NCBI GenBank assembly: GCA_963762255.1
Contig: CAVXKA010000002.1
Coordinates: 320,001-384,000 of the forward strand
Direction of reading: 5' to 3'
From: Candidatus Eiseniibacteriota bacterium
Lineage (GTDB): Bacteria > Eisenbacteria > RBG-16-71-46 > JABDJR01
Length of the DNA: 64,000 nt
In this document: in pieces, positions 15,308-58,019 of the stretch
Layout: each line of letters opens with the position of its first letter
Position numbering within the stretch: the stretch's first letter is position 1
Position numbers and translations under genes: made by a program
The notes under the pieces: generated by a model
Told to the model about the DNA's origin: nothing
Databases searched by the model: none
Seen by the model: only the letters and a program-made list of their open reading frames with translations

Positions 15308-15359
15308 GGTCAGAGCCCTCCGTTAAAAATGAACCGGCCGACGAATCACTACCCTGCGA

Positions 15360-15422
15360 CTAGATCCACCCGGACTTGCCGTCAAAAATCAGGGACATAA
15401 GGCTCAAGAGAAGCTCCCACAT
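15360..15422 (-). CDS. Unannotated 20-aa peptide MWELLLSLMSLIFDGKSGWI
   Basis: Manual translation from ATG 15422 to TAG 15360. AAGGAG RBS at 15430-15435, 7 nt before the ATG. Lies in an otherwise empty intergenic gap. Confidence 0.6.
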   Translation of the reverse strand: MWELLLSLMSLIFDGKSGWI

Positions 15423-15525
15423 AGCCACACTCCTTGGTTTGGGCTTGATGCATGCTGGCTGCCGTGTGGATCGCTTCGCTCTTTCGCTTGCTTGGCTCCG
15501 TTACGCGCTTTGGTGGATGTCTGTC

Positions 15526-41627: not shown

Positions 41628-43280
41628 TTATCCGCGCTTTTTGCGCGATGCCTTTCGCACAGCGCGCGGTGCGGGCACGGTCGCTGCCGGCTTCGCTGCA
41701 CCGACGTTGCTGGCGGGCAGGGAGCGCAGCGAAGTCCGCGGCCCAGGCTTCGGTCCCTGGCCCGCGGGCTTCTTCCAACGGGTCAGGAACTCGGCGAGGA
41801 GCCGCACTCCGGCCCCGGTGCCGCCCAGCCCCATGATCGGACCCGGCTTCTCGTTCCAGGCCGTCCCCGCGATATCGAGATGAGCCCAGCGGTAGCCGTT
41901 GGTGAAGGCGCCCAGGAATGCCGCCGCAGTGATCGCGCCGCCGGGGCGACCGGCCGTGTTCTTGATGTCGGCGACGTCGCTCTTGACCATGTCGCGGTAT
42001 TCCGGCCAGAGAGGGAGCGGCCACGCGCGATCGCCGGAGGCCTCAGCCGCCTTGTACACCTCGTCCAGGAGCCACTCGTCGTTGGCCAGGACCCCGGACG
42101 CGGAGGAACCGAGCGCAATCACGCACGCTCCGGTGAGCGTCGCGAGATCGATCACGGCGTCCGGCTTGAACCGCTCGGCGTAGGCGAGAGCGTCGCAGAG
42201 GATGAGCCGTCCCTCGGCGTCGGTGTTCTTCACCTCGATCGTGACTCCGGCCATCGACGTCAGGATGTCGCCCGGCTTGTAGGCATCGCCATCGGGCATG
42301 TTGAACGCGGCGGGAACGATGCCGACGACCCGCAGCGGGATCTTGTTCTCGGCCACGAACCGCATGGTTCCCAGGACCGCCGCGCCGCCGCCCATGTCGA
42401 ACTTCATGAGCTCCATCGCCTCTCCCGGCTTGAGAGAGATGCCGCCGGTGTCGAAGGTGATGGCTTTCCCCACCAGGCACACCGTGCCGCGGGAGCGCGC
42501 CGGCTCGTGTTCCATGATGATGAACTTGGGCGGTGCGGCCGCGCCGCGCGCGACTCCGAGGAAGGCGCCCATGCCCAGCTTCTCGCAGTCCGCCTTCTCC
42601 AGCACCTTCACCTTGAAGCCGAACTGCCGGCCCAGACGCTTGGCGGTCTCCGCCAAATACGCGGGGGTGACTTCATTGCTGGGGCCGTTGCCGAGCTCGC
42701 GGGCCTCGTTGACCGCGTTCCCGATGCTCAGCCCAAGCGCGGCGCCCTCGCGGATCGCCTTCACCTTGGACGCCAGCTTCTCCACCACGGTCAGTTGCTC
42801 GAGCAGGAGCGGCTCCGCGCGACCGTCGCGGAAGTAGTTGTCGTAGCGGTAGAGCCCGTAGAGGAGCCCCTCGATGAGAGCCTGCGATACCTCGCGCGCG
42901 GGCTTGCCCGACTCGCCGCCATGCAGCACGGTGGCCGCCCGCTTCACCTTGAGCTTGCGGAGCACGCCGGCGAGGGTCCCGCCGAGCCGGCGAATCCCCT
43001 CGAGATCGAGCGCGTCCGCCTTGCCCAACCCCATCACCACCACGCGCTCCGGGACGCCCCGTCCCGAGACCGCGGGATAGAGAACCATGGCCTCCCCCGC
43101 CGATCCCTTGAAGTCGCCGGACGCGAGGGCGCGGGCGATGACTCCGCCCGCCGCGGCGTCCACCGCCGCGGTGGCCCCCGTCGGGTTCTTCGCCCCTTCG
43201 TAGAGGTTCACCACGACCACGGGACCACCGACATGCGCGATGTCCCCCTGCTCCACGCTCAGCTTGAACTTAACTTCCAT
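41628..43280 (-). CDS. pepA: Leucyl aminopeptidase (M17)
   Basis: GKAITFDTGG, MKFDMGG, NTDAEGRL, DLATLTGA, HLDIAG. Start MEVKF after GAGGAGG. Confidence 0.95.
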   Translation of the reverse strand: MEVKFKLSVEQGDIAHVGGPVVVVNLYEGAKNPTGATAAVDAAAGGVIARALASGDFKGSAGEAMVLYPAVSGRGVPERVVVMGLGKADALDLEGIRRLGGTLAGVLRKLKVKRAATVLHGGESGKPAREVSQALIEGLLYGLYRYDNYFRDGRAEPLLLEQLTVVEKLASKVKAIREGAALGLSIGNAVNEARELGNGPSNEVTPAYLAETAKRLGRQFGFKVKVLEKADCEKLGMGAFLGVARGAAAPPKFIIMEHEPARSRGTVCLVGKAITFDTGGISLKPGEAMELMKFDMGGGAAVLGTMRFVAENKIPLRVVGIVPAAFNMPDGDAYKPGDILTSMAGVTIEVKNTDAEGRLILCDALAYAERFKPDAVIDLATLTGACVIALGSSASGVLANDEWLLDEVYKAAEASGDRAWPLPLWPEYRDMVKSDVADIKNTAGRPGGAITAAAFLGAFTNGYRWAHLDIAGTAWNEKPGPIMGLGGTGAGVRLLAEFLTRWKKPAGQGPKPGPRTSLRSLPASNVGAAKPAATVPAPRAVRKASRKKRG

Positions 43281-46164
43281 CGCCTCCTCCTCGGGGCCGG
43301 CGCCGTGCGCGCCCCTCTGTGACCTGGGTCTTCCCGCGCGGCCGTGCCGCCGAACCGAACTCCTCCGCCAACGCGCGCCCGGTGTGGGAGGCCGCGGCCT
43401 TCGCGATCTCCTCGGGCGTTCCTTGAGCCACCACGCGCCCACCGCCGTCCCCGCCTTCGGGTCCGAGGTCGATGATGTGGTCGGCCGTCTTGATCACGTC
43501 CAGGTTATGCTCGATGACCACCACCGTATTGCCTCGATCCACGAGGCGATTCAACACCGCGAGAAGCTGGCGCACATCGTGAATGTGAAGCCCGGTGGTG
43601 GGCTCGTCGAGAATGTAAAGCGTCTTTCCCGTAGCGACCTTGGCCAGCTCCGAGGAGAGCTTCATGCGCTGCGCCTCGCCTCCGGAGAGGGTCGTGGCCG
43701 GCTGGCCCAGGTGAATGTAGCCCAAACCCACCCCTTGCAACACGTCCAACCGCCGGCGCACGGTGGGGATCGCGGCCAGGAACTCCGCCGCCTCGTCCAC
43801 CGTCATTTCCAGCACGTCATGCACGGTCTTGCCCTTGAACGTGATCTCCAGGGTTTCGCGATTGTACCGTCTCCCGTGACAACTGTCGCATCGCACGTAC
43901 ACATCGGGGAGGAAGTGCATCTCGATCTTCACGACCCCGTCCCCCGCGCAGGCTTCGCAGCGCCCCCCCTTCACGTTGAACGAGAACCGACCCGGCTTGT
44001 ACCCCCGCACCTTGGCCTCGGGAAGCTCCGCGAACAGGCTGCGGATCTCGGTGAAAATTCCGGTGTACGTCGCGGGATTGGAGCGCGGCGTGCGCCCGAT
44101 CGGGGATTGATCGATCTCCACTACCTTGTCGAGGTGCTGGAGCCCTTCGAGGCGCAGGTGGCGCCCCGCGGGCTCGGAGCCGGAGTGGAAGTGCCGCGCC
44201 GTCGCACGGAACAGGATGTCATTTACAAGCGTGCTCTTGCCCGAGCCGCTCACCCCGGTCACGCAGGTGAACACGCCGAGGGGAAAGTCCACGTCGATCT
44301 TCTTGAGGTTGTTGGCGGCGGCTTCGCGCACCACCAGTGACTTGCCATGCCCCGAGCGCCGTGCGGCGGGAAGCGGGATGGCGTCCCGTCGCGAGAGATA
44401 CCGGCCGGTGAGCGAGGTCGGGTGCGTCTCGATTTCGGCGGGAGTGCCTTCGGCGACCACTTCGCCCCCGAGCTTCCCCGCCCCGGGACCGAGATCCACG
44501 ATCCAGTCCGCCGCGCGCATGGTGTCGAGGTCATGCTCGACCACGAGCACCGTGTTTCCCAGATCCCGCATGGCGAGCAGGGTGCGCAGCAGCCGCTGGT
44601 TGTCGCGATGGTGGAGCCCGATCGAGGGCTCGTCGAGAACATAGAGCACTCCCATGAGGCGCGAGCCGACCTGGGTGGCGAGGCGGATGCGCTGGGCCTC
44701 GCCGCCGGAGAGCGTCGACGCGTTGCGGTCCAGCGTCAGGTACTCGAGCCCCACGTCGGCCATGAACCGCAGGCGCTGGCGGATCTCCTTGAGCACCTGC
44801 ACGCCGATCTTCGCCTCGCGCTCGGTGAGCTGGAGCGTGTCCACCCACGCGATCGCATCCTGGACCGCGAGCCGCACCACGTCGTGGATGGAGCGCTCGT
44901 GCACGCGAACGGCCAGGGTCTCCGGCTTGAGGCGTGCGCCGCCGCATGCGCGGCAATCGGTGGAGGCCATGTAGGCCTGGACCTGTTCGCGAACGAGTTC
45001 GCTCGTGGACTCGCGGTAGCGGCGCATGAGACCGGGGATGACCCCGCGCCACTCCTTCTTGTACTTCATGCTGAAGCGCGAGTCCTGATACTGGACGTCG
45101 ATCTCCTTGCCGCCCGCGCCCTGGAGCACCACCTGCCGGACTTTGGCCGGCAGCTTCTTCCACGGCGCGTCGAGGTCGATCCGATATGCCTTGGCCAGGG
45201 CCTTGATCTGCGAACCGAGCCAGAGAGAATCGACGCGGGTACCGTACGGGGCGATCGCGCCCTCGTTGATCGAGAGATCCGGGTTGGGGACGACGCGCTC
45301 GGGATCGATCTCCATCCGCGTCCCCAGACCGTCGCACTCGGGGCACGCGCCGTAGGGAGAGTTGAAGGAGAACATGCGCGGCTCGAGATCGGGATAGGAG
45401 AGACCGCAGGCCACGCACACCGCGTGCTCGTTCAGCACGCGGTCCTCCGCGCCGTCCACGACGACGGTGACCAGTCCACCCGAGAGCCCGAGGGCGGTCT
45501 CGATGGAGTCGGTGAGGCGCTGGCGTTGAGCGGCGTCGGGCTTGAGCCGGTCCACGACGATCTCGATGGTGTGCTTGCGCTTCTTGTCGAGCGCGGGGGC
45601 GGACTCGATCTCGACCCACGCGCCGTCGATGCGCGCGCGCAAGAACCCCTCGCGCTTCAGCTCGGCCAGCTCGGCGCGATACTCCCCTTTCCGTCCCCTC
45701 AGGATGGGAGCGAGGACTTGCGTGCGTTTGCCGGCGGCGGAGGCGAGTACGCCGTCGGCCATCTCTTGGACGGTCTGCCGGCTGATGGGGCGGTCGCACC
45801 GCGTGCAAAACTGCTTGCCCACCCGGGCGAAGAGCAGCCGGAGGTAGTCGTAGATTTCGGTGGCGGTGGCCACGGTGGAGCGGGGGTTGCGGGCGGCGGT
45901 GCGCTGCTCGATGGAGATGGCGGGCGAGAGGCCGTCGATGTGGTCGACGTCCGGCTTCTCCATCTGGCCGAGGAACTGCCGAGCGTAGGCGGAAAGGCTC
46001 TCCACGTAGCGCCGTTGCCCCTCGGCGTAGATGGTGTCGAACGCCAGGCTCGACTTGCCCGAGCCGCTCACCCCGGTGATTACCACCAGCCGGTCGCGGG
46101 GAATCTCCAGGGAGATGTTCTTGAGGTTGTGCTCGCGGGCTCCGCGAATGGAGATGGTCGCCAT
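43270..46164 (-). CDS. uvrA: Excinuclease ABC subunit A
   Basis: [10 protein letters not shown], two GVSGSGKS motifs, two LSGGEAQR motifs, zinc-finger CxxC pairs. Confidence 0.98.
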
Positions 46165-46204
46165 GGTTCTGCCTGGGGAAGGGGTCGGGAATGGAGAGCG
46201 ATAG

Positions 46205-46233
46205 AGGCTAGGACGCGTCCGGAGCGGTGTCAA
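46205..46233 (-). promoter_or_regulatory. uvrA promoter TTGACA-N17-TAGCCT
   Basis: Perfect -35 and 17-nt spacer, about 40 nt upstream of the ATG. Confidence 0.6.
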
Positions 46234-46250
46234 GGAAGCCCAACTGCTCG

Positions 46251-46279
46251 TTGACGCTCGCCATCTCGGGGCCTACCAT
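46251..46279 (+). promoter_or_regulatory. Promoter TTGACG-N17-TACCAT for the dikinase-like/maeB-like operon
   Basis: Hexamers with a 17-nt spacer, back-to-back with the uvrA promoter. Confidence 0.6.
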
Positions 46280-46326
46280 CGGCTCCGTACCGCCGGAGCG
46301 GATGCATCCCGCCACGGGGTTCGAGG

Positions 46327-49300
46327 GTGACTGAGAAACCGGGGCGGGAAACCGTCCCTTTGCACGCGCATCCGGGCACGGAACAGGCCGCCGTCGCCGG
46401 GCTCGTCGCATCGATCGTCGCGCAGTGCGCGGCGGCGATGGGCCGGCCCGAGCGCGTCGTCGAGGATTGCCGACGTCTCCGCGCGCTCCTCCCCGCTTCA
46501 CCCGCGGACTGGCCTCTCCCCGAGTTGGAGCCGCTCTTCCCTCTGCCGGCGGCCAAGTCCACCGAGTTCGCGGCGCCGGTCTGCGCGCTGATCGAGGAAG
46601 CGGCGGCCGCGATCGCCTCGCCGTGGCCCTTCTTCGACGCGCTTCTCGCCGCGCGCGACCCTGACCTCGCCGGCCGCGCCCTCGATCTCCTCGCCCGCCG
46701 CGCTCGAGACGCATCGCTGGCGATAGAACCCGAGCGGCTGCGCCGCCTTGCCGCGCGCGTCGAGGCCGAAGGCTCGCCGCTCGTCACGCCCTGCGCGCTC
46801 GACGCGCTGGGCGCGATCCTCGCCGCCGCCCGGCCCGCGCCGGCGCACGTCGCGGACGCCGCGCAAACGTTCTTCTTCGAAGCCGCCGACCCTCTCGTTC
46901 GCCGGCTTGCCGCGCGCGTGCTGGATCGATCGGGGGAACCCGCGCCGCGGGAGACCGCGATCCGTGCGCTGGGCGCCGAGGCGTTCGCGTTCCTCCACCC
47001 GTACCTCGAGTTCACGCGGGCCTCCCATCGCGATCTCCTGGAGCTCGCCTCGTCGCCGGGCGTGGTTCCCTCGCTCGCATCGCTCCAACGCGCGGAAGCG
47101 CTCGCCGGCGAGAGCGTGCTTCGCGAGGTGATCGCCCGGCTGGGCTGGCCGCACCTCAACCTGGGTCTCGAGGTCGATGCGCAGGTCGCGATCGCGCTCC
47201 CCGGCACCTTCCCGTTCCTGGTCGCCCGCGAGGAGGCGCCCTACTTCGCGGCGCTCGCGGGGGTCGAGCCGGTTCGGGAGTTGACGCTCTTCATCGCGCA
47301 CGGTGGGACGACCGGCGCCGAGGGCGCGACGGAGGATTCGGGAGGTACCGTCGCGCGCTTCCGCGGGTACAACCTCGCTCATGCCGAGGCGCTCGCCGAC
47401 ATCCTCGATCTCGCCCCGCTCACCCGCGAGAAGAGCGTGCGCATCCTCGACCGAATGGACCGCATCGTGGAGGACTTCACCGCCCTCTTCGCCCGTCACT
47501 CCGACGAGTGCGCGCGGCTCCCCGATGCGTATCGCGAACTGCGCGGCCGCGTGACGGCGGAGCTCGATCGCGACGACGGCGATACGACGCTGTCCACCGA
47601 GCTGACCCGCCTCGTGCAGATGTTCGAGGATCCGCGCTCGCTCGACGAGGTGCGCACGCTCCACGGTCTCAAGCGATACCTGCACCAGCGGGGTTTGCGA
47701 CTGGGCTTCCGATTGGTGGAGACCTCCCGGGCGACCAATCGCAGGGTCCACATCCTCCTTGCCGACCCGGACGGGCTGCGCCGCGAGTGTCCCGAGATTC
47801 GATACGTGGATTTCGAGCCGCCGGTCTCCGAGGGAGAATCGCAGATTCCGTTTCCGGTGCGCGTGGCGGTAGAAGGGTTCTCGCGACAGCTCATGCGCGG
47901 TCAGAGCGCGTTTCCGGGGCTTAGCGTGTTCTGCTACGGAAACGAGGTGCACTACTACCTCGCCTTCGGCAATCACCCGGCGTTCCTGCGCATCGACTAC
48001 TCCCCGCCTCTCCAGGGAGGCATGATCGATCTCGAGTACTTCGGGGTCAGCAAGTCCGAGCTCAATCAGCATCCCGATCCGGAACTCACCGCGCTGCGGG
48101 CCTGCTTTCGCCGCCTCGACTTCGATGTGCAGGTGGAGAGCACCCACGTGCGGGCGCGCTACGACAAGGAGCGGGCCCTCGACCTGGGGGCGATCTGCGA
48201 GAAGGCGGGCGCGCTCTTCCGCCTCGCCCCTCACCTCATGGACGTGGATTGGGCGGTGGGAGGACTGCGTCTGTCGGCGGACGCGCGCGGCAAGGTCGCC
48301 GAGGCCTGGGCCGACTTCCTGGCTCGCTGGGGAAGCCTGCCCAGCGATCGTTTCCTGACCGGCGACCGCCAAGGGATTCTGGTGGGCTTGGTGCGCGCGC
48401 CGGGGGGCCCGCGGGAGCTGGTGTGGAGCGGCGAAGGCGCGTACCAGGACCGCTTCTCGTCCCCTTTCCCCCCCGAGGCCTGGGCGCGGTGGCAGGAAGC
48501 GATCCGCGGGTTGGGGTTGGAGAGGCCGGTATCGGTCCCTGATGTCGATCGGCGCTACGCGCAACTCCGGTTCGAGCACGAGTTCCTGACCCCGCTGCGC
48601 GCGGCGAAGGCGCGCGGGCAGATCGTCGCCGAGGAGGGTACCCATCGCCGCGCCGCGGCCGACCGTTTCCGCCTCGAGCACGAGGCCGAGATCTTCGCTC
48701 GCCTTCTCGCCGGGCCCTCGGCGGCGCTCACCGGCGCGATCGCGCTGGCGCGCCTGGTGAGCCCCCTCGAGCGCACCCTGCGCTTCCAGACCACCGGCGT
48801 GGTCAACGGCCATGAGGTGCAGCGCGCGCGGCTTCCGCTGCGAGGGGAGGACATCGGCCTGTTCGTGCTGCGCGGACCGCGCGGCATCATCCGCCTCGCG
48901 CTCTACTCGCGCGACGGCGTCCTCTGGAGCCGCCGCGAGGACGCCGGCTCACCCTGGACCTTCAGCGGAGAAACCGATGCCGCGGTCCTCGCCGCGCTCC
49001 TTCGCGCGAACGGCTATCCGCCGCTCCCGTTCGATGGAAGCGCCGTGGACGCGGAAGACACCGAGGATCTCCGCCGGCGCCTGCGCCGGCTGGACCCGGC
49101 CCCGCGCCTGCGAAGCCTCTCCGGCGAGCGCGTGGTCACCGGTCTTCGCGCCTCTCCCGGACGCGCGGTCGGACCCGCGCGGCTTGGGATGGGCGGCCGC
49201 TCCCCCCGCGATTTCGCGGGCGCCATCCTCGTCACCCCGCGCGTGGGCCCCGAGGACAACGCGTTCCTCTTCAGCGCCGCCGCCATCGTCTCGACCGGAG

Positions 49301-51420
49301 GCGGCATCCTGAGCCATGCCGGACTCCTCGCCATCCAATTCCGCAAGCCGGCCCTCATCGTTCCCGGCCGCTGGTCGGTGGAAGCGGACGGCGCCCCGAC
49401 CCTGAGTCTTCCCTGTCTCGAGTACGGCGAGGAGGAGCGCGAGGTCGAGGGCTCGCGCGTCGTCCTGCGCACTGACCTTCAGGAGCGGGAGCACTCCCTG
49501 CGCGAAGGCGATCTGGTCGCGGTGGACGCGGCTGCGGGAACACTGCGCGTGTTGGGGCGCGGCCCCGAGGCGCTGGCGCTCCACGACGGGCTCTGCCGGC
49601 TCGAGGACGCCCGCCGTCGGCTGGCCGGCGATCGTCCCGACGAGGACATCCTCGTCCTGCGCGGCCATCGTCTCAAGGCGCGTCATCAGCTCGCCAAGCT
49701 CGTCGCCCGCTTCACCGATCCCGCACTGGCGCGACATACCGTGGACGAACTCCTTCTGCGCGAACCGCGTCTCGACGATCCCGATCGCGTACCGGAGACC
49801 GCGGCGCTTCTCGCCGCGCTCCTGGCGAACCCGGTGGTGGGGGCGCGCGCGCGCGAGCATGCGGCGGCGCTGACCGAGGATCTCGACCGGCGGCGGCAAG
49901 CCCTGGTGTCGCGGTCGGCGTTCCGCATCCCGACCTCGCGCTCCGCCTACGAGGTACTGCAGCTTCGCCTCGACGCGCTCCGTCTCAGCGAGGCCTTCCG
50001 CGCCGCGCGCGAACTGCTGCCGTCGGCCGAGAGTGCAGGTGTCGGCTCCGGTGCCGACGCAGCCGACCTCGATGCCCTCGCGCTCGAACAGCTCCGCCGG
50101 CTCCTCGCCGGGCGTCTGCGCACCCTGCGCGATCGTTCCTTCGACGACGCGGGACGACCCCGGCGGCGCCATCTCCTGCGGGAGGCCGAGCGGCTCGCCA
50201 AGGTCTGCGGCGGGTCGGAAGGCACCCGGCGCCGGCTGCACGCCGCACGGGCCGGACTCGCGCAGGAGGACGACGCCCGCGTTCGCTCGCTGTCCACCCG
50301 ACGAGTCCTCGGCGCGCCGGACGGCGGATTGGAGCTGCTCCCCCTGGTGGGAGGCAAGGCGGCCAACCTCGCCGAGATCGAGCGCCTGGCCGGATCGCAC
50401 GTCGTGCCGCCGTGGTTCGCGGTCACGCATCACGCTTTCGAGGAGATGCTCGCGTCACCGGTCGCGGTGCGGGCCGCCGGCCTGGAGAGCCTGATCGCCG
50501 GCGCGCACACGCTTCACGAGGCGATCGAGTCGATTCTGGGCCATAGCGAGCTTGGAATAGCACAGCGCGCTGCGGCTATTCGTTTGCTATGGGATCAGAG
50601 CCGCCTGCCCGAGGATCTCGCCGCCGAGATCCTGGAGGCGTGCGCGAAGATCCTCGCCGTCCCCGGCGACGATCAACCTCTCCCCGGTTTCGTGGCCATT
50701 CGCTCCTCCTCCCGCGAAGAGGACGCCGAGGCTGCCGCCCGCGCCGGCGAGTTCGACACGTTTCTCTTCGTGCGCGGGGAAGCCGCGGTGCTGGACCATC
50801 TCAAGCGCGCGTGGAGCGGCCTATGGTCGGAACGGGCCATCCACAACCGGGCCGTCCTCGAGAGTTCCACCGAAAAGGCCGGCGGCGGCATCGTCGTCCA
50901 ACGCATGATCTTTTCGCGGGTCGCCGGCGTCGTGCAGACGGTCAACGTGGCCGAGAACGAACCCCGCGAGTTCGTCATCAACGCCGGCCTCGGTCTCGGG
51001 GAAGGGGTGGTCTCCGGGGCGGTGGCCGCGGACCAGATCGTGGTGGCGCGCGAGGGCGATCTCGAGAAGGGGCCGCTCCGTTTCCGCTACGCCACCGCCG
51101 ACAAGACCGAGCGCGTGGTCCTGAATCGCGAGGCGGGTCTGGGGACACGGCGCGAGGAAACCCTCTACCACCAGCGCCTGCGCCCGGCGCTAGAGTACGT
51201 GGAGCTCTGCGAGCTGGTGCGCGCGGCGGCCCGCCTCGAGGAGGCCTACGGCTATCCCCTCGACCTGGAATTCGGGATCGAGGGAACGCGGCTCTGGATC
51301 CTCCAGGCGCGACCCGTTGCCGTCTTTCACGCTCTCTTGCGGGAGACTCTCGACCGTCGGCCCCTGGCCCCCCGGTCCCGATCACGGATTCCCCGAGCCC
51401 ATGAGGAGATCGCGTCATGA
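46327..51420 (+). CDS. Giant (1697 aa) PEP-utilising/dikinase-family protein: unknown N-terminus, swivelling phospho-His domain, C-terminal ATP-grasp domain
   Basis: ASPGRAVG and GGGILSHAGLLA (His997); then VGGKAANL (about 1342), AIRSSSREED..AGEFDTFL, GLGEGVVSG, LDLEFG..LWILQARP. Confidence 0.88.
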   Translation: MTEKPGRETVPLHAHPGTEQAAVAGLVASIVAQCAAAMGRPERVVEDCRRLRALLPASPADWPLPELEPLFPLPAAKSTEFAAPVCALIEEAAAAIASPWPFFDALLAARDPDLAGRALDLLARRARDASLAIEPERLRRLAARVEAEGSPLVTPCALDALGAILAAARPAPAHVADAAQTFFFEAADPLVRRLAARVLDRSGEPAPRETAIRALGAEAFAFLHPYLEFTRASHRDLLELASSPGVVPSLASLQRAEALAGESVLREVIARLGWPHLNLGLEVDAQVAIALPGTFPFLVAREEAPYFAALAGVEPVRELTLFIAHGGTTGAEGATEDSGGTVARFRGYNLAHAEALADILDLAPLTREKSVRILDRMDRIVEDFTALFARHSDECARLPDAYRELRGRVTAELDRDDGDTTLSTELTRLVQMFEDPRSLDEVRTLHGLKRYLHQRGLRLGFRLVETSRATNRRVHILLADPDGLRRECPEIRYVDFEPPVSEGESQIPFPVRVAVEGFSRQLMRGQSAFPGLSVFCYGNEVHYYLAFGNHPAFLRIDYSPPLQGGMIDLEYFGVSKSELNQHPDPELTALRACFRRLDFDVQVESTHVRARYDKERALDLGAICEKAGALFRLAPHLMDVDWAVGGLRLSADARGKVAEAWADFLARWGSLPSDRFLTGDRQGILVGLVRAPGGPRELVWSGEGAYQDRFSSPFPPEAWARWQEAIRGLGLERPVSVPDVDRRYAQLRFEHEFLTPLRAAKARGQIVAEEGTHRRAAADRFRLEHEAEIFARLLAGPSAALTGAIALARLVSPLERTLRFQTTGVVNGHEVQRARLPLRGEDIGLFVLRGPRGIIRLALYSRDGVLWSRREDAGSPWTFSGETDAAVLAALLRANGYPPLPFDGSAVDAEDTEDLRRRLRRLDPAPRLRSLSGERVVTGLRASPGRAVGPARLGMGGRSPRDFAGAILVTPRVGPEDNAFLFSAAAIVSTGGGILSHAGLLAIQFRKPALIVPGRWSVEADGAPTLSLPCLEYGEEEREVEGSRVVLRTDLQEREHSLREGDLVAVDAAAGTLRVLGRGPEALALHDGLCRLEDARRRLAGDRPDEDILVLRGHRLKARHQLAKLVARFTDPALARHTVDELLLREPRLDDPDRVPETAALLAALLANPVVGARAREHAAALTEDLDRRRQALVSRSAFRIPTSRSAYEVLQLRLDALRLSEAFRAARELLPSAESAGVGSGADAADLDALALEQLRRLLAGRLRTLRDRSFDDAGRPRRRHLLREAERLAKVCGGSEGTRRRLHAARAGLAQEDDARVRSLSTRRVLGAPDGGLELLPLVGGKAANLAEIERLAGSHVVPPWFAVTHHAFEEMLASPVAVRAAGLESLIAGAHTLHEAIESILGHSELGIAQRAAAIRLLWDQSRLPEDLAAEILEACAKILAVPGDDQPLPGFVAIRSSSREEDAEAAARAGEFDTFLFVRGEAAVLDHLKRAWSGLWSERAIHNRAVLESSTEKAGGGIVVQRMIFSRVAGVVQTVNVAENEPREFVINAGLGLGEGVVSGAVAADQIVVAREGDLEKGPLRFRYATADKTERVVLNREAGLGTRREETLYHQRLRPALEYVELCELVRAAARLEEAYGYPLDLEFGIEGTRLWILQARPVAVFHALLRETLDRRPLAPRSRSRIPRAHEEIAS

Positions 51421-53681
51421 TCCGCCGAGAGGAATCGCTCAAGTACCACTCGCTCGACCGCCCGGGAAAGATCGAGGTGCGGGCCACCAAGCCCTGCCTC
51501 ACTCCGCGCGAGATGCGCCAGGCCTACCTCCCGGGCGCCTCGTACCCGGCCGAGGAGATCCACCGCGATGTCTCCTCTGTCTTCAAGTACACGGCTCGCG
51601 GCAACCTCGTCGGTGTGATCACCAACGGCTCGGCCGTGCCCGGCCTCGGAGCTGTGGGGCCCTATGCGGCCAAGCCGATGCAGGAAGGGATGGCGGTCCT
51701 CTTCAAGCGCCTCGCCGACATCGACGTGTTCGACCTCGAACTCGACACCGCCGACCCCGACCGGTTCATCGAGACGGTGAAGCTCCTCGAGCCGACCTTC
51801 GGCGGGATCAACCTGAAGGACATTCGCGCGCCGGAGGGGCTCTACATCCACGACCGGCTCACGGAACTCCTGGAGATCCCGGTCTTCCACGAGAACCTCT
51901 ACGGGACCGCGGTGGTGGCGGCGGCGGCGCTGCTGAACGCGCTCGATCTGGTGGAGAAGCCGATCGACGCGGTGGACGTCGTGATCTCCGGCGCGGGAAC
52001 GGTCGGCACCGGGTGCGCCCGCCTTCTGGTCGCTCTCGGCGTGCGCCCGGAGCGCCTGCGCGTGTACGACGTGGCCGGGCTGATTCGCCCGGACCGCGGC
52101 GATCTTCACGACTATCAGCGCCCCTTCGCGCGCGAAGACGCACCGCGGGATCTCGCCGAGGGTCTGCGCGGCGCCGACGTGTTTGTGGGCGCCTCCGCCG
52201 GCGGCGTGCTCACTCCCGACATGGTCCGGGGCATGGGGCGCTATCCCATCGTCCTCGCCCTGGCTACCCCCGAGCCGGAGATCACCTACGACGCCGCGCG
52301 CGCCAGCCGCCGCGACGTGGTGGCGGCCACCGCCGTCGCAGGCTCCCCCAACGCGGTGCTGGATGTGCTGAGTTTCCCCTACATCTTCCGCGGGGCTCTT
52401 GACGTGCAGGCCCGCCGCATCACGCAGGGAATGCTGGTGGCGGCGGCGCGCGCGCTGGCCGATCTCGCGCGCGAGGACGTGGTCGAGGAGGTGGAACGCG
52501 CCTACGGAGCCGGCCGGTTCAGCTTCGGCCCGGAGTACCTGCTCCCCAAAGCGATCGACCCGCGCATCCTGGTATGGGAATCCTCCGCCGTGGCCCAGCA
52601 GGCGATCCTGGACGGGGTGGCGAGCCGGCCGACGGCCGCCGAACCGCACCGCGATTCCCTGGCCGCGCGGCTCGGAACCGGCCGTGAGACGCTGCGCAGC
52701 ATGATCCTCGCCGCGCGCCGAAGCAAGCTGCGCGCGGTCTTCTCGGAGGGGACCAACGAAACAATTCTGCGCGCGTGCAGCATCCTCGCCGACGAAGGAA
52801 TCGCGAGCCCGATTCTTCTCGGACGCGAGGACGAGGTGCGGGCGGCCATCGAGGAACTCCGCCTGGATCTCCCCGGCGTGCCGATCATCGACCCCGCCCG
52901 GAGCCCGCGCCTGGAGACGTACACCGAATCCTACTTCGCTCTGCGCGGCCGGCGCGGCGTCATGCGCGCGGCCGCTACGCAGCGCCTGCTCAGGCGCGAG
53001 TACTACGCCGCGATGATGCTCCACTGCGGCGACGCCGACCTCATGGTCTCCGGCGTCTCCGCCCACTATGCGGAATCGCTGCGCACGATCCTCGAGGTGA
53101 TCGGGACCGCGCCCGGCATCCGTCGGGTCTCCGGGCACTACCTCGTGCTGTTGCCCAAACGCATGTTCGTGCTCGCCGATTGCGCGGTCAATATCAACCC
53201 GGACGCCGAGGAGCTCGCCGAGATCGCGCTTCTCGCCGCCGACCTCGCGCGGTCGCTCGGAGAAAAGCCGCGTGTAGCCATGCTTTCCTTCTCGAACTTC
53301 GGGAGCGTGGATCATCCGGTCACGCGCAAGGTGCGCCGCGCCGCGGAGATCGTGAAGCAGCGCGCTCCGGATCTGGAGATCGACGGGGAGATGCAGCTCC
53401 CCATCGCGCTGGACGGGGAGATGCGCCGCCGGTACTTCCCCTTCTCCTCCCTGGGGGACGACGCCAACGTGCTGGTCTTCCCGGGACTCGAGCCGGGGAA
53501 CCTGGCCCTCCACCTGCTGCAACACCTGGGGGGCGCGGTGCCGGTGGGGCCGATCCTCCTCGGCACGCGCTTCCCCGCACACGTGCTGCAGTTCGGCTAC
53601 TCCGTGGAAGAGGTGGTCAACCTCACCACGGTGGCGGCGGTGCAGGCGGCGGCGGGGCGACGCTCTACTGAAGCATCGTGA
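51417..53681 (+). CDS. maeB: MaeB-like malic enzyme-phosphotransacetylase fusion with degenerate malic-enzyme active site
   Basis: PGKIEV..TKP, YTARGNLV, FPYIFRGALDV, FGPEYLLPK; PTA domain with AMLSFSNFGS and IDGEMQ. Catalytic motifs are altered (EGM, LKDI, HENLY). Confidence 0.85.
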   Translation: MIRREESLKYHSLDRPGKIEVRATKPCLTPREMRQAYLPGASYPAEEIHRDVSSVFKYTARGNLVGVITNGSAVPGLGAVGPYAAKPMQEGMAVLFKRLADIDVFDLELDTADPDRFIETVKLLEPTFGGINLKDIRAPEGLYIHDRLTELLEIPVFHENLYGTAVVAAAALLNALDLVEKPIDAVDVVISGAGTVGTGCARLLVALGVRPERLRVYDVAGLIRPDRGDLHDYQRPFAREDAPRDLAEGLRGADVFVGASAGGVLTPDMVRGMGRYPIVLALATPEPEITYDAARASRRDVVAATAVAGSPNAVLDVLSFPYIFRGALDVQARRITQGMLVAAARALADLAREDVVEEVERAYGAGRFSFGPEYLLPKAIDPRILVWESSAVAQQAILDGVASRPTAAEPHRDSLAARLGTGRETLRSMILAARRSKLRAVFSEGTNETILRACSILADEGIASPILLGREDEVRAAIEELRLDLPGVPIIDPARSPRLETYTESYFALRGRRGVMRAAATQRLLRREYYAAMMLHCGDADLMVSGVSAHYAESLRTILEVIGTAPGIRRVSGHYLVLLPKRMFVLADCAVNINPDAEELAEIALLAADLARSLGEKPRVAMLSFSNFGSVDHPVTRKVRRAAEIVKQRAPDLEIDGEMQLPIALDGEMRRRYFPFSSLGDDANVLVFPGLEPGNLALHLLQHLGGAVPVGPILLGTRFPAHVLQFGYSVEEVVNLTTVAAVQAAAGRRSTEAS

Positions 53682-54792
53682 GGAAGACGCCTGCCACCAT
53701 CGCCGTGCCGATCACGCCGGCCACGTTCGGTCCCATGGCGGGCATGAGGGGGTTCACCCGCCCCTCGGTCTCGTCGGACACGAGCTTCTGAACCACCCGC
53801 GCAGCCATGGGCACCGCCGACACCCCGGCGGCGCCGATGCAAGGATTGATCTTCTTCCCCTCGGGCAGCAAGAGGTTCAAGAACTTGCCGAGGAGTACGC
53901 CGCCGGCAGTGCTGAAGATGAACGCCACCGCGCCCAGGAGCAGGATGAGAATCGTCTTCACGGTGAGGAAGTTCGCCGCGTCCATGGTGGCCCCGACTGC
54001 GAGACCGAGGAACATCGTCACGATGTCGATCAACGCAGACCCGGCGGTCTTGCGTAGCCGCTCGGTCACCCCGCACTCCCGCAGGAGATTCCCGAACATG
54101 AGCATGGCCATCAGGGCGGCCGAAGACGGAACCGCCAGCGAGGCCAGCGTCCCGGTGATGATCGGGAAGAGCACCACCGCCACCTTGCTCACTTCCTTCG
54201 GCTGCGGCATGTCGATGCCCCGCTCCCGGCGCGTGGTCAGCAACCGGATCACAGGGGGCTGGATGATCGGAACCAGCGACATGTAGCTGTACGCGGCCAC
54301 GGCGATCGGCCCCAGAAGATGGGGCGCCAGGCGGGTGGCGAGATAGATCGAGGTCGGGCCGTCGGCGCCGCCGATGATGCCGATGCTCGCCCCCTCCTGC
54401 GGCGTGAACCCCAGGAGATACACCGCCCCCATGCCGGCTACGAAGACGCCTAGCTGGGCGGCCGCTCCGAGGAGGAACGTCAGGGGCTGGGCGAGCAGCG
54501 GACGAAAATCGGTCAGCGCCCCGACTCCCAGGAAGATCACGGGGGGGAGCAGATCGGTGAGGATCCCCTGCCGGTAGACGAGGTTGATGATCCCGGTGTC
54601 GTGAGAACCGAGTTCGGCGAGCGGTAAGTTGGCGATGAGGATGCCGAACCCGATCGGGATCAGCAGCAACGGTTCGTAGTCCTTGGCCACGGCCAGATAG
54701 AGCAGCACGCCGGCGACCACGTACATGATCGCGTTGCCAAGGCTCAGGTGAGCGAAGCCCGACTGGGTGACGAGCTGCTGGACGGTCTCCAT
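53665..54792 (-). CDS. oadB: Na+-translocating decarboxylase beta subunit
   Basis: YEPLLLIPIGFG, IGIIGGADGPTSIY, AAYSYMSLVPIIQPP, GVSAVPMAAR, MGPNVAGVIG. Confidence 0.95.
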   Translation of the reverse strand: METVQQLVTQSGFAHLSLGNAIMYVVAGVLLYLAVAKDYEPLLLIPIGFGILIANLPLAELGSHDTGIINLVYRQGILTDLLPPVIFLGVGALTDFRPLLAQPLTFLLGAAAQLGVFVAGMGAVYLLGFTPQEGASIGIIGGADGPTSIYLATRLAPHLLGPIAVAAYSYMSLVPIIQPPVIRLLTTRRERGIDMPQPKEVSKVAVVLFPIITGTLASLAVPSSAALMAMLMFGNLLRECGVTERLRKTAGSALIDIVTMFLGLAVGATMDAANFLTVKTILILLLGAVAFIFSTAGGVLLGKFLNLLLPEGKKINPCIGAAGVSAVPMAARVVQKLVSDETEGRVNPLMPAMGPNVAGVIGTAMVAGVFLTMLQ

Positions 54793-54804: not shown

Positions 54805-56679
54805 CTAGGAAAGCACCAGGATCGGCTGCGTCGAATCGATCTCTTGACCGACCGCGGCGTTCACCGCCACCACAACGCCGTCGACAGGGGCGCGGATGTC
54901 GTGCTTGGCCTTCATCGCTTCGACCGCGGCCACCGTTTGCCCCTTCTTCACGTGGTCCCCCACCTTCACGGAGACCCCCACCACCTCGACGCGGCCCCCG
55001 AACGGGGAGCGCACCGCCACCGAACCGCCACCCGAAGGTGGCGCACTCGCAGGCGTGCCGGCCGCCGGGGCCGCCGCCGGCGCAGGCGCCGGGACTCCCG
55101 CCCCGAGGCCCATAGTCGCCGCCGGCTCCAGCGTGATCGTGAACACGCGCGCGCGGCCGTTCTCCTCCACCGTGCATCGAGTCTGCGTCGGGCCGGCGAC
55201 CGGCGCGGCGGGCGCCGGCGCTGGCGGCGTCGCCTGACCCTCCGTCCCCTTCTTCTTCAGGGGGACATCGATCTTCGGTTTGCCGGTCAGGAGGCGAATG
55301 CCTTCGTTCATCTCCAGCGGCATCCCCGGCACGATCGCGGAGAGAACCAGGAACACGTTCTCATCGGTGACCGGAAGGCCGCGCTCGGCAAGCGCGCTCC
55401 GAGCGGTCACGATGTGATTGGGGGCCGCCTCGAGGGGATCCCCGTCGAAGGGCGGCAACTCCAGCTCCTCCGACGCCTTTTTCACGACCATCGGGTCGGG
55501 AGGCAGCGGGGTCTTGCCGAAGTAGCCCAGCACGGCGCGCGCGTAGCCGTCCTCGATGCGCTCCCAGCGTCCGTAGAGAACGTTGTTGAACGCCTGGAGC
55601 CAGTATTGCTGGCTGCCCGGCGTGACGCTGGTCCAGGCTCCGCCGGCCTCCACGACCACCGGGAACTCGGCCAGCACCTCGCCGTACTTCTCCAGAATCC
55701 CCGCCTTCACCATCATGTGGACGTTGGGACCGATCGCGCCTCCGGGCATGGGGAAACCGACCACCCGCGCGTCGGCGGTGGTCGTGGCCGGATTGAAGGC
55801 GTAGTCCTTGAGCAGGTCGGTGAGGCACTCTTCGATCGGGTTCATGGATGCCGGGTCGATGTCGAGCGAGTAGCCGGTCCCCTTCAGGGCGTGGGCCATG
55901 GAGCGCACATCCGGCTGAACGGTGCCGCTGGCCAGCGGGCGCACAGAGAGATCGATTCCGTCAGCCCCTCCCTCGATGCCCGCCATATAGCAGGCCACCG
56001 CCATGCTCGCGGTGTCGTGGGTGTGGATCCAGAGCGGCATCTCCGGGGGCATCAGCTTGCGGACCCCCACGGCCGTCTCGTAGACCGTGCGCGGGTCGCA
56101 GGTGCCGCTCGCGTCTTTCAGGCAGAGGCTATCGATGCGCACCCCGCCGGCGAGCAAGCGCCGCGCGATGTCGATGTAGAACCCCGACGTATGGACGCGA
56201 TCCGACACGAAGGGGAGACCCATGAGGGCCACGCACGCCTGGTGGTGCATCCCCGCCTCGACGATCGGTCGCGCGGTGTTGATGAGGTTGCGCACATCGT
56301 TCATGTAGTCGAAGTTGCGGTCCCAGGTGGTCCCGTGCTTCTTCATCAGCTTGGCCTGGAGCCGCAGCGCCTCCAACGACTGCGTGGTGAGGGTGACCCC
56401 CGACACCGATCGCGTGAGGATCTGCAAGTCCGCGTCCGGCCCCACCGCATCGCGGATCGCCTGCATGTCGGCGAAGGGATCCTCCCCGAGATAGAAGTAG
56501 GGTGCCTGGTAGCGGGCGCCGCCTCCGAACTCGAAGTGGCGGATCCCGAGACGGGAGGAGAGCTTCACCGCCTCCAGGAAATCAGCCAACCGGACCTTGC
56601 CGCCGAACGCGCTTTGCAGACCGTCGCGGAAGGCCGTCATCATGACCCGGATCTGCTTGGGCTTCTCGGTGCGGATCAT
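54805..56679 (-). CDS. oadA: Oxaloacetate decarboxylase alpha subunit (carboxyltransferase + biotinyl domain)
   Basis: FRDGLQS, LKDASG, HTH metal motif, MPGG, VTPGSQ, Pro/Ala linker, EAMK biotinylation site. Confidence 0.9.
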   Translation of the reverse strand: MIRTEKPKQIRVMMTAFRDGLQSAFGGKVRLADFLEAVKLSSRLGIRHFEFGGGARYQAPYFYLGEDPFADMQAIRDAVGPDADLQILTRSVSGVTLTTQSLEALRLQAKLMKKHGTTWDRNFDYMNDVRNLINTARPIVEAGMHHQACVALMGLPFVSDRVHTSGFYIDIARRLLAGGVRIDSLCLKDASGTCDPRTVYETAVGVRKLMPPEMPLWIHTHDTASMAVACYMAGIEGGADGIDLSVRPLASGTVQPDVRSMAHALKGTGYSLDIDPASMNPIEECLTDLLKDYAFNPATTTADARVVGFPMPGGAIGPNVHMMVKAGILEKYGEVLAEFPVVVEAGGAWTSVTPGSQQYWLQAFNNVLYGRWERIEDGYARAVLGYFGKTPLPPDPMVVKKASEELELPPFDGDPLEAAPNHIVTARSALAERGLPVTDENVFLVLSAIVPGMPLEMNEGIRLLTGKPKIDVPLKKKGTEGQATPPAPAPAAPVAGPTQTRCTVEENGRARVFTITLEPAATMGLGAGVPAPAPAAAPAAGTPASAPPSGGGSVAVRSPFGGRVEVVGVSVKVGDHVKKGQTVAAVEAMKAKHDIRAPVDGVVVAVNAAVGQEIDSTQPILVLS

Positions 56680-57006: not shown

Positions 57007-57951
57007 TCAAACTCCGGATGCCGGCTCCCCGAGCACGACCACCCGTCCGCGCCGAATGGGGGCGGCGATCCCCTCGATCCGCAGCCCCAGGTCCTCGGCG
57101 ATCTCCGTCACCGCTCCGCGGGCCACCTCCTTTCCCCCCGGAACGTCTTCGTAGATAGCGACTTGCCGCCCCAGTACGGTCGACCGGCGCCGGTAGACGG
57201 CGAGTATCTCTCCGAATCCCCCCGCCTGCAGCTCGTCCAGCCGCACGCGCAACGCGCAGATTACTGCACCGAACAGATCCGCCAGGGAGCACGATACTGA
57301 AGGTCCGGCGTAGTCGCGAAGCGCTGCCACGCGAGGCACGAAGATGTCCGGCTCCACCTGGGGGGTGCGTTCCACATCGAGGCCGATGCCCAGGATGGCA
57401 TCCGTGAGCCGTGATCCCTGAGACCGGGTCCGGACGATGACACCCCCCACCTTGGCGCCGTCGAGCATCGCGTCATTGATCCAGCGGATCCCGGCTTTGC
57501 CCTCCAGCCCCGGAACCGCATCGATCGCGTCGAGCAGAGCGACCGCGGGCGCGATGAGCATGCTTGCTCCCCCCTCTCGGGCGGACACGTCGACGCGTGA
57601 GCCGGCCACGAGGTGCAGGTTCCCTGGAACCGCCACCCATCGGCGGCCTTCCCACCCGTGGAATTCGCTCCCGGTTTCCGCGACGGCCAGAAGACGGTCT
57701 CCGGCTTCTCCCGCCTCGAGCAGCGATGCCAGGACGTCGAACTGCGATCGCGCGGCGTGGCCCGCCACGAAGAGACGCTTCCATCCGATCTCTCCGTCGA
57801 TGGTGCCCGTGAACCACTCCGACCCGGAGAGAAGAGCCGTCGCGACCGCGCGATCCTCCGGGGTCAAATCACGGGCGGCGACGCCTCGCCAGGATGCGCG
57901 CCGGCCGATCAAGCGCTCGGCGAACGGGAGCCGATCCGTGCAGATCCACAT
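57007..57951 (-). CDS. Divergent biotin--protein ligase (BPL/BirA-like, no HTH)
   Basis: G..GRRW...GNLH, RWINDA....KVGGV, LGIGLDV, C-terminal SH3-like segment. Adjacent to the biotin-dependent oad operon. Confidence 0.75.
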   Translation of the reverse strand: MWICTDRLPFAERLIGRRASWRGVAARDLTPEDRAVATALLSGSEWFTGTIDGEIGWKRLFVAGHAARSQFDVLASLLEAGEAGDRLLAVAETGSEFHGWEGRRWVAVPGNLHLVAGSRVDVSAREGGASMLIAPAVALLDAIDAVPGLEGKAGIRWINDAMLDGAKVGGVIVRTRSQGSRLTDAILGIGLDVERTPQVEPDIFVPRVAALRDYAGPSVSCSLADLFGAVICALRVRLDELQAGGFGEILAVYRRRSTVLGRQVAIYEDVPGGKEVARGAVTEIAEDLGLRIEGIAAPIRRGRVVVLGEPASGV

Positions 57952-58019
57952 CGCTTCGACCTTACACAACCCGCCGCGCCGCGGCTATCCTCTTACCCTT
58001 CGTCGACAAGGAGGATCCG

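Follow-up and report, generated by a model that had tools for sequence, protein, structure and literature searches.

An apparently undescribed family of dikinase-like proteins encoded directly ahead of a MaeB-type malic enzyme

According to the reports cited here, the swivelling-histidine dikinases combine their domains in several ways. Rifampin phosphotransferase (RPH), phosphoenolpyruvate (PEP) synthase (PEPS, here represented by PpsA) and pyruvate phosphate dikinase (PPDK) begin with the ATP-grasp domain (PMC4844700), a two-component type divides the same functions between HpeH (substrate and His domains) and HpeI (ATP-grasp domain) (PMC12167813), and potato glucan water dikinase 1 (GWD1) runs from two CBM45 carbohydrate-binding modules (CBMs) through a central domain of 20 helices to a His domain (H992) and, over a short connection (aa 1050-1069), to the ATP-binding domain (PMC13553574). 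The acceptors described for the superfamily are diverse and include rifampin, phenols and glucans (PMC4844700, PMC12167813, PMC13553574), and VadK, a descendant of PPDK, is described as a histidine kinase that phosphorylates itself and has methylcitrate synthase and methylcitrate dehydratase as interaction partners (PMC13400623). Here we analyze a gene for a 1,697-aa dikinase-like protein in a 64,000-nucleotide stretch of DNA from a Candidatus Eiseniibacteriota bacterium (assembly GCA_963762255.1, contig CAVXKA010000002.1, positions 320,001 to 384,000 of the forward strand), to which we refer as the window. Both defining domains of the superfamily are found in this protein, which is thus one of its members, and the gene is followed directly by maeB, which encodes a malic enzyme. 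The protein belongs to a conserved and, as far as sequence comparison can tell, undescribed family, the N-terminal half of which resembles nothing described. A literature search that left subscription journals and supplements outside its scope found no paper on this dikinase family or on the dikinase-maeB gene pair.

With PpsA the window dikinase shares homologous ATP-grasp and swivel His domains, presumably the phospho-His chemistry that turns ATP into AMP and Pi, and plausibly a metabolic neighborhood around pyruvate and PEP. It differs from PpsA in placing the His domain ahead of the ATP-grasp domain, in lacking the PEP-utilizers_C TIM barrel and in adding a 250-aa helical linker and 930 N-terminal residues, and from both PpsA and PPDK in bearing Leu in place of the regulatory Thr. 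Judged by TIM barrel, domain order, Thr and curated cut-offs alike, it falls outside the PEP synthase and PPDK families. The plant enzymes GWD1 and phosphoglucan water dikinase (PWD), on the other hand, have the same succession of acceptor side, His domain and ATP-binding domain, a similar size and a catalytic His near residues 990-1000 (H997 here, H992 in StGWD1). An earlier note on this DNA, made from the sequence alone, had likened the protein to the glucan water dikinases and had set their order against that of PpsA, PPDK and RPH. The contrast in order agrees with the published descriptions (PMC4844700, PMC13553574), and the likeness holds that far; it breaks down on the acceptor side, where GWD has its CBM45s and an all-helical central domain of 20 helices and the window dikinase is modelled as a solenoid and an alpha/beta region, in which no CBM was found. 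GWD also has a short connection where the window dikinase has its 250-aa linker between the His and ATP-grasp domains, and the partner gene here is that of a malic enzyme. Homology between the two acceptor sides was not detected, the GWD central domain being set apart by its published description; the central-domain structures 9HA9 and 9QVI are not among the listed Foldseek matches, in a library copy (to April 2026) that may not contain them.

A third group, comprising RPH, HpeHI, CreHI and PpsAB, supplies the best structural matches of the window ATP-grasp domain (5hv1, 9goj) and lacks the regulatory Thr as well. HpeH has a non-TIM acceptor domain directly ahead of its swivel His domain, and the fusion of an HpeH-like with an HpeI-like protein would give the order seen in the window dikinase, making this two-component type as close an analogue as GWD. 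RPH itself, however, is ATP-grasp first, and the substrates of this group are hydrophobic aromatics, whereas the gene context here is that of central carbon metabolism; the RIF-binding or HpeH substrate domain shows no detectable relationship to the N-terminal region, no RPH chain being among the 49 Foldseek matches listed for the whole 940-aa N-terminal query. VadK, finally, is likewise related to the PEP utilizers, has no TIM barrel and is linked to central metabolic enzymes (PMC13400623); the window dikinase differs from it by its large conserved N-terminal region and reversed order.

Catalytic domains and the N-terminal region

At E<=1, Pfam recognizes exactly two families in the window dikinase: the His swivel domain PEP-utilizers at aa 965-1070 (E 7.6e-8, 32.3 bits against a cut-off of 23.1) and, behind it, the ATP-grasp domain PPDK_N at aa 1339-1666 (E 4e-58). 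The His motif of the superfamily, T/S-x-x-G-G-x-x-x-H (PMC12167813), is present at S989-H997, where aa 989-1000 read STGGGILSHAGL (S989-T-G-G992-G993-I-L-S-H997) and the codon of the catalytic His997 occupies 49315-49317. When the protein is aligned by HMMER with chains of PPDK and PpsA, H997 comes to stand opposite the catalytic His of their GGMTSH motif and L995 opposite its Thr, and L995 is kept in at least 97% of 59 family sequences. The earlier note had read the same domain order, the GGILSH motif around His997 and the exchange of the regulatory Thr for Leu from the letters of the gene, and all three are borne out by these comparisons. Relative to the Pfam model, the swivel domain contains an insertion of about 35 residues (aa 1024-1058, window 49396-49500), modelled as a long beta hairpin of two antiparallel strands and partly conserved in the family, which may serve to dock or to gate the swivel.

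In the ATP-grasp domain, K1344, R1459, T1478 and E1648 align with Lys22, Arg117, Thr136 and Glu297 of RPH, which are ATP-site residues of that enzyme (PMC4844700). They represent the phosphate-binding Lys, Arg and Thr and the Mg-binding Glu of the superfamily, and all four are invariant in a 30-sequence family alignment. The ATP site is complete and the catalytic His sits on the swivel domain, and the conservation of these residues suggests the chemistry of the superfamily, in which ATP yields AMP and Pi. Structure models were built with AlphaFold2 for two halves of the protein (aa 1-940 and aa 900-1697), each on a 45-row alignment. The C-terminal model (pLDDT 83.0, pTM 0.83) matches in Foldseek searches of the PDB the structures of RPH (5hv1, E 1.8e-16), HpeI (9goj, E 6.3e-16), the PEP synthase PpsA (2ols, E 2.6e-15) and the phospho-carrier (His) domain of PPDK (2fm4, E 1.6e-3). 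By sequence, the best PDB matches of the ATP-grasp domain are true PEP synthases (8a8e, 208 bits, 1.2e-60; 9dae, 176 bits, 7.8e-51), ahead of RPH at 142 bits, a ranking that is a crude stand-in for a phylogeny. The 21 NCBIfam matches to the dikinase are all partial and fall far under their cut-offs (196.7 against 598 for the PpsA equivalog; 39.2 against 843). The linker between the two catalytic domains was described beforehand as helical and rich in Ala, Arg and Leu, which together do make up 52.4% of aa 1080-1325 (40.1% of the whole protein), and is modelled as nine helices; with the family profile it found no real match among PDB sequences, the only one being uL29 of 9hig at E 0.39.

The N-terminal model (aa 1-940; pLDDT 83.8, pTM 0.82) begins with helices at aa 19-272 that form an ARM/HEAT-like solenoid with pLDDT mostly between 84 and 96. 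Its Foldseek matches in the PDB are ARM/HEAT repeat proteins only and weak, with E values of 0.06-0.4 (e.g. 3o2t, prob 0.94). As had been guessed from the sequence, the solenoid gives way to an alpha/beta block, a mixed region with some 25 modelled strands in aa 280-870, and the motifs that the earlier note quoted from it (YGNEVHYY, FLRIDYSPP and GGMIDLEYFGVS) fall on modelled strands within 531-572. According to model and alignment, NEVHYY, RIDY, DLEY and ARYDKE lie on consecutive strands, and the alternate charged residues face one side. The core of this region, aa 276-740, holds 52 of the 112 positions of the protein that are conserved in at least 97% of the 59 sequences, among them R346, H352, R428, H446, K449, R450, H453, Q454, E540, H550 and R555, as well as D568, H582, R611, D613, K614 and D641. 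With its confident model, and with aa 276-740 conserved like the catalytic domains and charged residues at many of these positions, the N-terminal region has the look of an enzyme domain rather than of a spacer.

No counterpart of this region was detected in any of the collections searched. Run as a whole 940-aa query, the N-terminal model has no Foldseek match at E<=1e-3 among 350,542 PDB chains, nor among the BFVD viral models. The family profile over positions 1-927 meets among PDB sequences only a designed helical protein (E 0.33), and the profile of aa 276-925 none at E<=10. In aa 276-925 of 56 family members, Pfam at E<=10 yields no family common to more than three of the 56, and ESM Atlas look-ups with aa 275-930 and aa 468-720 returned no usable match. 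Neither the PEP-utilizers_C TIM barrel nor CBM45, CBM20 or any other carbohydrate-binding family is found by Pfam in the dikinase (E<=1) or in aa 276-925 of the 56 members (E<=10 for the barrel), and the modelled secondary structure of the N-terminal region is not that of a beta/alpha-8 barrel. The roughly 930 residues that the earlier note could not assign thus match neither a pyruvate-binding TIM barrel nor any characterized family in Pfam, NCBIfam, PDB sequences and profiles, PDB folds or BFVD. The notion that the new region might be a cryptic internal copy was rejected, hhalign giving aa 276-925 a probability of 0.3% against both the ATP-grasp and the His alignment of the family. Among 1.84 billion representative proteins, the profile of aa 276-925 has 230 matches at E<=1e-3, the best 150 of which have the same architecture (about 1,400-1,940 aa, with the region starting at about residue 180-335) or are shorter pieces. 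As judged by these best 150 of 230 matches, the new region seems confined to this protein architecture, and the six longest family members contain no extra fused Pfam domain.

Spread of the family and its maeB partner

A word-indexed protein search recovered 396 relatives of the dikinase at E<=1e-3 among 7,999 scored. The best 119 of these span 1,419-1,733 aa, are 45-55% identical over 84-100% of the query and all contain the same two Pfam domains. These 119 carry generic names only, such as "PEP/pyruvate-binding domain-containing protein" or "pyruvate, water dikinase". Scanning one genome per species (185,579 species) gave 229 relatives, from which 79 loci were kept, all of them in metagenome-assembled genomes. 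Of the full-length rows, the 57 for which a phylum is named sort into 12 groups at phylum level, and record titles of partial loci add Candidatus Neomarinimicrobiota and Cytophagales. The taxa include Acidobacteriota, Eisenbacteria, Desulfobacterota (with Syntrophobacter), Bacteroidota, Ignavibacteriota, Calditrichota, Planctomycetota, Verrucomicrobiota, Krumholzibacteriota, Zixibacteria, Gemmatimonadota and Marinimicrobia. A FastTree phylogeny of the 59 full-length sequences has short deep branches and groups them roughly by phylum, with 18 label changes where the minimum is 11 and shuffled labels average 36.2. Hence, the family looks old and for the most part vertically inherited, with some transfers or mis-binned contigs. 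Conservation is lowest in the linker and next lowest in the solenoid. When the ATP-grasp part alone was used to look for split or stand-alone forms, 426 matches at E<=1e-10 were obtained among 8000 scored; the best 120 of these are all at least 48% identical, most on short contigs and few on long ones, and, read as pieces of family members, they give no evidence for a natural two-component form.

The closest relatives of the window dikinase are a full-length protein at 55% identity among the matches listed from the protein collection, the locus L001 at 74% and the fragment P0268 at 94%. For the product of the neighboring uvrA gene (43270-46233, - strand), the nearest named relatives are from Candidatus Eisenbacteria (66-68% identity) and other relatives reach 73-96%. 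Retention of the dikinase among close relatives may be patchy; alternatively, the genomes in question may lack sequence.

The strongest functional clue in this family, which had escaped the earlier note, is the gene that follows the dikinase. When the 79 loci were compared by all-against-all clustering of their open reading frames (ORFs), a maeB-like ORF was found directly downstream and on the same strand in all 63 loci with at least 477 nt of sequence after the dikinase gene; the other 16 of the 79 end no more than 157 nt past it, where the downstream gene cannot be judged. In the window, the encoded protein comprises the Pfam domains malic, Malic_M and PTA_PTB, and over aa 5-745 it matches in the PDB the Bdellovibrio-type MaeB 6zng at 5.6e-198 and 8jzo at 2.5e-181. 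It scores 688.9 bits against the NCBIfam subfamily model NF009501, below the cut-off of 1178. By these sequence matches, the partner is a bona fide hybrid malic enzyme of the MaeB type, and the partner MaeBs of the other loci are 59-75% identical to it across phyla.

In the window, the maeB ATG overlaps the TGA of the dikinase gene (ATGA), and a GAGGAG that resembles a Shine-Dalgarno sequence lies 8 nt upstream, within Glu-Glu codons of the dikinase (51400-51420). Junctions could be measured in 63 cases (62 loci and the window, with L066 having a maeB without clear start), of which 39 overlap, 34 of them as ATGA (33 related loci and the window). The non-overlapping junctions measure 0-30 nt in 11 cases, 31-100 nt in 8 and more than 100 nt in 5. 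One of the Eisenbacteria loci, L054, bears an MFS transporter gene (14903-16129, + strand; MFS_1, E 3e-62) on the same strand within a dikinase-maeB gap of 1.4 kb, an insertion that fits an operon for small-molecule metabolism.

Gene, neighbors and the rest of the window

The features of the locus are collected in the table below. The dikinase ORF lies at the coordinates first described and has a GTG start, no internal stop and 1,697 codons for amino acids, and its codon-position GC (GC3 0.85, GC2 0.51) resembles that of neighboring housekeeping genes; the feature is real and intact. The true start may be the TTG at 46357, some 10 codons downstream of the GTG: the GTG follows its GAGG almost without a gap, and the purine-rich stretch of the TTG is better spaced. 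The choice leaves all conclusions on the dikinase untouched. The promoter match ahead of the gene lies within the 93 nt that separate the dikinase gene from the divergent uvrA and is the sole promoter-like site in 46000-54200, against a mean of 0.3 in shuffled sequence.

Features of the dikinase locus in window positions, with mean identity to the window protein over 58 relatives for each part of the dikinase
Feature	Positions	Strand	Basis	Mean identity
Sigma-70-like promoter match, TTGACG-17-TACCAT	46251..46279	+	consensus match only	
Dikinase gene, 1,697-aa multidomain dikinase-like protein	46327..51420	+	ORF, Pfam, homologues	
All-helical ARM/HEAT-like solenoid, aa 18-275	46378..47151	+	model, weak Foldseek	36%
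Conserved core of new alpha/beta region, proposed acceptor site, aa 276-740	47152..48546	+	model, conservation	51% (aa 276-468); 51% (aa 469-740)
Last part of new region, helices and five-stranded sheet, aa 741-925	48547..49101	+	model, less conserved	39%
Phospho-His swivel domain, aa 931-1075	49117..49551	+	Pfam, model, Foldseek 2fm4	54%
Nine-helix Ala/Arg/Leu-rich linker, aa 1080-1325	49564..50301	+	model, composition, conservation	32%
ATP-grasp nucleotide-binding domain, aa 1335-1670	50329..51336	+	Pfam, Foldseek, RPH alignment	58%
maeB, 754-aa NADP-malic enzyme with C-terminal PTA-like domain	51417..53681	+	Pfam, PDB profile, NCBIfam	
Na+-translocating decarboxylase beta subunit (oxaloacetate decarboxylase, OAD, beta)	53665..54792	-	TIGR01109, 444.5 bits vs cut-off 190.6	
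Oxaloacetate decarboxylase alpha-like subunit, carboxyltransferase and biotinyl domain	54805..56679	-	below equivalog cut-offs	
Biotin-ligase-like ORF	57007..57969	-	clusters with L007:5604-6593, which has BPL_LplA_LipB	

Downstream of the pair, the OAD beta gene is convergent with maeB and recurs as a neighbor in 4 related loci, and OAD alpha in 5. The biotin-ligase-like ORF of the window has no Pfam match itself, and its family is found in the window and 3 loci. OAD or biotin-ligase genes flank the pair in L007, L015, L032, L040 and L061, and in L007 and L061 OAD alpha and beta lie on the strand of the pair. An acetyl-CoA synthetase gene is near the pair in 5 loci and, like the OAD genes, suits a setting of pyruvate metabolism. 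A family of GAF/sigma-54 activators recurs near the pair in 9 loci. Its members in the two Syntrophobacter loci, sigma-54 enhancer-binding proteins with a GAF domain, have their genes immediately ahead of the pair and on its strand (L016, 7838-9451, +; L019, 7833-9551, +), hinting at sigma-54 control of the pair in that lineage. Besides maeB, no neighbor is general to all among the 79 loci, and no glycogen or glycan genes recur among the neighbors in the related loci. FlgD_ig-tagged proteins, PAS histidine kinases, Ser/Thr kinases and ABC ATPases recur as well but, as members of promiscuous families, were taken to carry no information.

Apart from the divergent uvrA gene upstream of the dikinase gene, the rest of the window is ordinary chromosome, with genes for purine synthesis, glycine cleavage, tRNA synthetases and an oligopeptide ABC transporter. 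No mobile elements, tRNA genes or Rfam families at gathering score were found in the 64 kb, and GC content stays at 64-72% across the window, with no compositional island around the dikinase gene. The arginyl-tRNA synthetase (ArgRS) gene appears split over two ORFs in different frames (17314-18276 and 18276-18962, both on the - strand), with the N-terminal domain in one and the second half of the catalytic domain and the DALR domain in the other. The probable cause is one indel or frameshift, whether genuine or a sequencing error. Two further ORFs seem shorter than expected, one truA-like (8778-9101, 108 aa) and one CCA-enzyme-like (21960-22538, 193 aa).

Acceptor and function of the pair

We regard it as probable that the protein is a dikinase with a new acceptor domain and is functionally tied to MaeB. 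In the mechanism that we propose, after the pattern of PPDK, PEP synthase, RPH, HpeHI and GWD (PMC4844700; PMC12167813; PMC13553574), the C-terminal ATP-grasp domain would bind Mg-ATP and His997, on its mobile swivel, would attack the beta-phosphate, with the gamma-phosphate passing to water and AMP leaving. Held between a short N-terminal connection and the long helical linker, the phospho-His domain would then swing to the core at aa 276-740 and hand its phosphate to an acceptor held there by the invariant cluster of Arg, Lys, His, Asp and Glu residues. The many invariant Arg, Lys and His residues, and with them those of Asp and Glu, suggest as acceptor a small anion with Mg2+. With maeB invariably downstream, a polymer is an unlikely acceptor and the pyruvate/malate node is indicated instead. 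Of the earlier proposal of a dikinase whose acceptor might be a polymer, a protein or a small molecule, the dikinase part is consistent with the conserved catalytic residues, and the polymer loses ground to maeB.

The dikinase would work as a functional unit with a co-transcribed and translationally coupled MaeB, and its most likely acceptor is pyruvate, which would be converted to PEP. Pyruvate is favored because both the coupled MaeB and the recurrent oxaloacetate decarboxylase make it. The pair would then run from malate to pyruvate to PEP, with the reverse possible in anaerobes. The same two steps, malate to pyruvate to PEP, are performed by NADP-malic enzyme and PPDK in C4 plants. We hold this complete reading tentatively, as the best single account and somewhat short of an even chance; according to it, a dikinase of the swivelling-His type, equipped with a new acceptor domain, forms a unit with MaeB and most likely makes PEP from pyruvate. 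The stoichiometry, the place where the acceptor binds and the acceptor itself are all inferred, and several points weigh against this account. The acceptor is a guess from gene context. Canonical binding of pyruvate and PEP uses a TIM barrel, which is absent from the window dikinase, and it is unclear why a new module of about 900 aa should have evolved for the same chemistry. Moreover, the fold search was made with the whole N-terminal model, so that a weak match of a subdomain could be outranked by matches of the solenoid, and a remote relative of the new region in another architecture could be present among the 80 weakest of its 230 profile matches.

The same mechanism might instead serve another small anionic acceptor, such as malate, oxaloacetate, lactate, a CoA or NAD(P) species or some compound yet to be named, and its product would be a phospho-metabolite so far unlinked to this enzyme class. 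We consider this the foremost alternative to pyruvate, though clearly less probable. The unrelatedness of the acceptor region to the pyruvate TIM barrel and to all known acceptor domains argues for a new specificity, the invariant basic residues R346, R428, K449, R450, R555, R611, K614 and R849 would suit any polyanion, and the superfamily has recruited acceptors as different as rifampin, phenols and glucans. However, no result singles out a candidate compound, and MaeB, at every locus with room for it, and OAD, at several, converge on pyruvate.

The dikinase could also be a regulator that autophosphorylates on His997 and binds or phosphorylates MaeB, or else senses a metabolite through its N-terminal region, thereby controlling malic enzyme flux in the way that VadK acts on enzymes of the methylcitrate cycle. 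VadK, with its autophosphorylation and its interaction with methylcitrate synthase and dehydratase, sets a precedent (PMC13400623). Proteins made in a fixed ratio are typically encoded as dikinase and MaeB are, by strictly adjacent genes with overlapping stop and start, and the ARM/HEAT solenoid is a common protein-binding module. The solenoid, however, is among the least conserved parts of the protein (36%), and a regulator of 1,700 aa would be costly for an enzyme of 750. VadK (Rv1127c) is short, has the ATP-grasp domain first and is not known to have a separate acceptor domain; the window dikinase, by contrast, has a 650-aa region whose conservation equals that of the catalytic domains. On balance, we think a regulatory role unlikely.

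Two bolder versions of the catalytic proposal seem to us about as improbable. In one, dikinase and MaeB would be in physical contact and form a single machine that interconverts malate and PEP directly, its new-fold domain phosphorylating the enolpyruvate of MaeB; in reverse, and at the same long odds, enolpyruvate derived from PEP would pass into reductive carboxylation and the phosphate bond would be conserved as ATP. A complex prediction for MaeB aa 5-745 with the solenoid (aa 18-275) gave a score of 0.00 (mark 0.32), which is no evidence either way. In the other version, of equal novelty and similarly doubtful, the product would be a phospho-metabolite new to biochemistry.

There is very little chance that the protein is a bacterial counterpart of the plant glucan and phosphoglucan water dikinases with a polymer acceptor, e.g. 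glycogen or another glycan. The shared order of acceptor side, His domain and ATP-grasp domain, and the correspondence of His997 to H992 of StGWD1 (PMC13553574), favor such a kinship; the failure to find CBM45, CBM20 or any other carbohydrate-binding family with Pfam, the 20 helices of the GWD central domain as opposed to the alpha/beta structure modelled here, the lack of recurring glycogen or glycan neighbors and the malic enzyme as invariant partner all oppose it. Lastly, the seemingly frame-shifted housekeeping genes of the window (e.g. ArgRS, split at 18276) and the long spurious ORFs that arise in high-GC DNA might have made the dikinase ORF an artefact, a misassembly chimera or two-gene run-through, a view ruled out by more than 119 full-length homologues of identical architecture and 59 full-length ORFs in independent genomes, and further contradicted by a codon-position GC pattern like that of real genes and by high-confidence structure models for both halves.

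The choice between catabolism, gluconeogenesis and anaplerosis falls at the node of PEP, pyruvate and oxaloacetate/malate, whose enzymes are regarded as completely known. Yet here is a family that keeps about 50% identity over at least 12 phyla, always with maeB behind it, under generic names that its architecture does not justify, and whose 650-aa acceptor region has a confident model without match in the solved-structure or viral-model libraries searched. Should the direct malate/PEP machine prove true, it would constitute an undescribed route at this node in many uncultured anaerobic and soil phyla. If the family has some other function, it would stand for a reaction not yet described or for a novel way of controlling malic enzyme. 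If, as we tentatively favor, PEP is made, a second, non-TIM solution to the phosphorylation of pyruvate would exist, and genome-scale models of these uncultured lineages would mis-assign or miss a gluconeogenic step.

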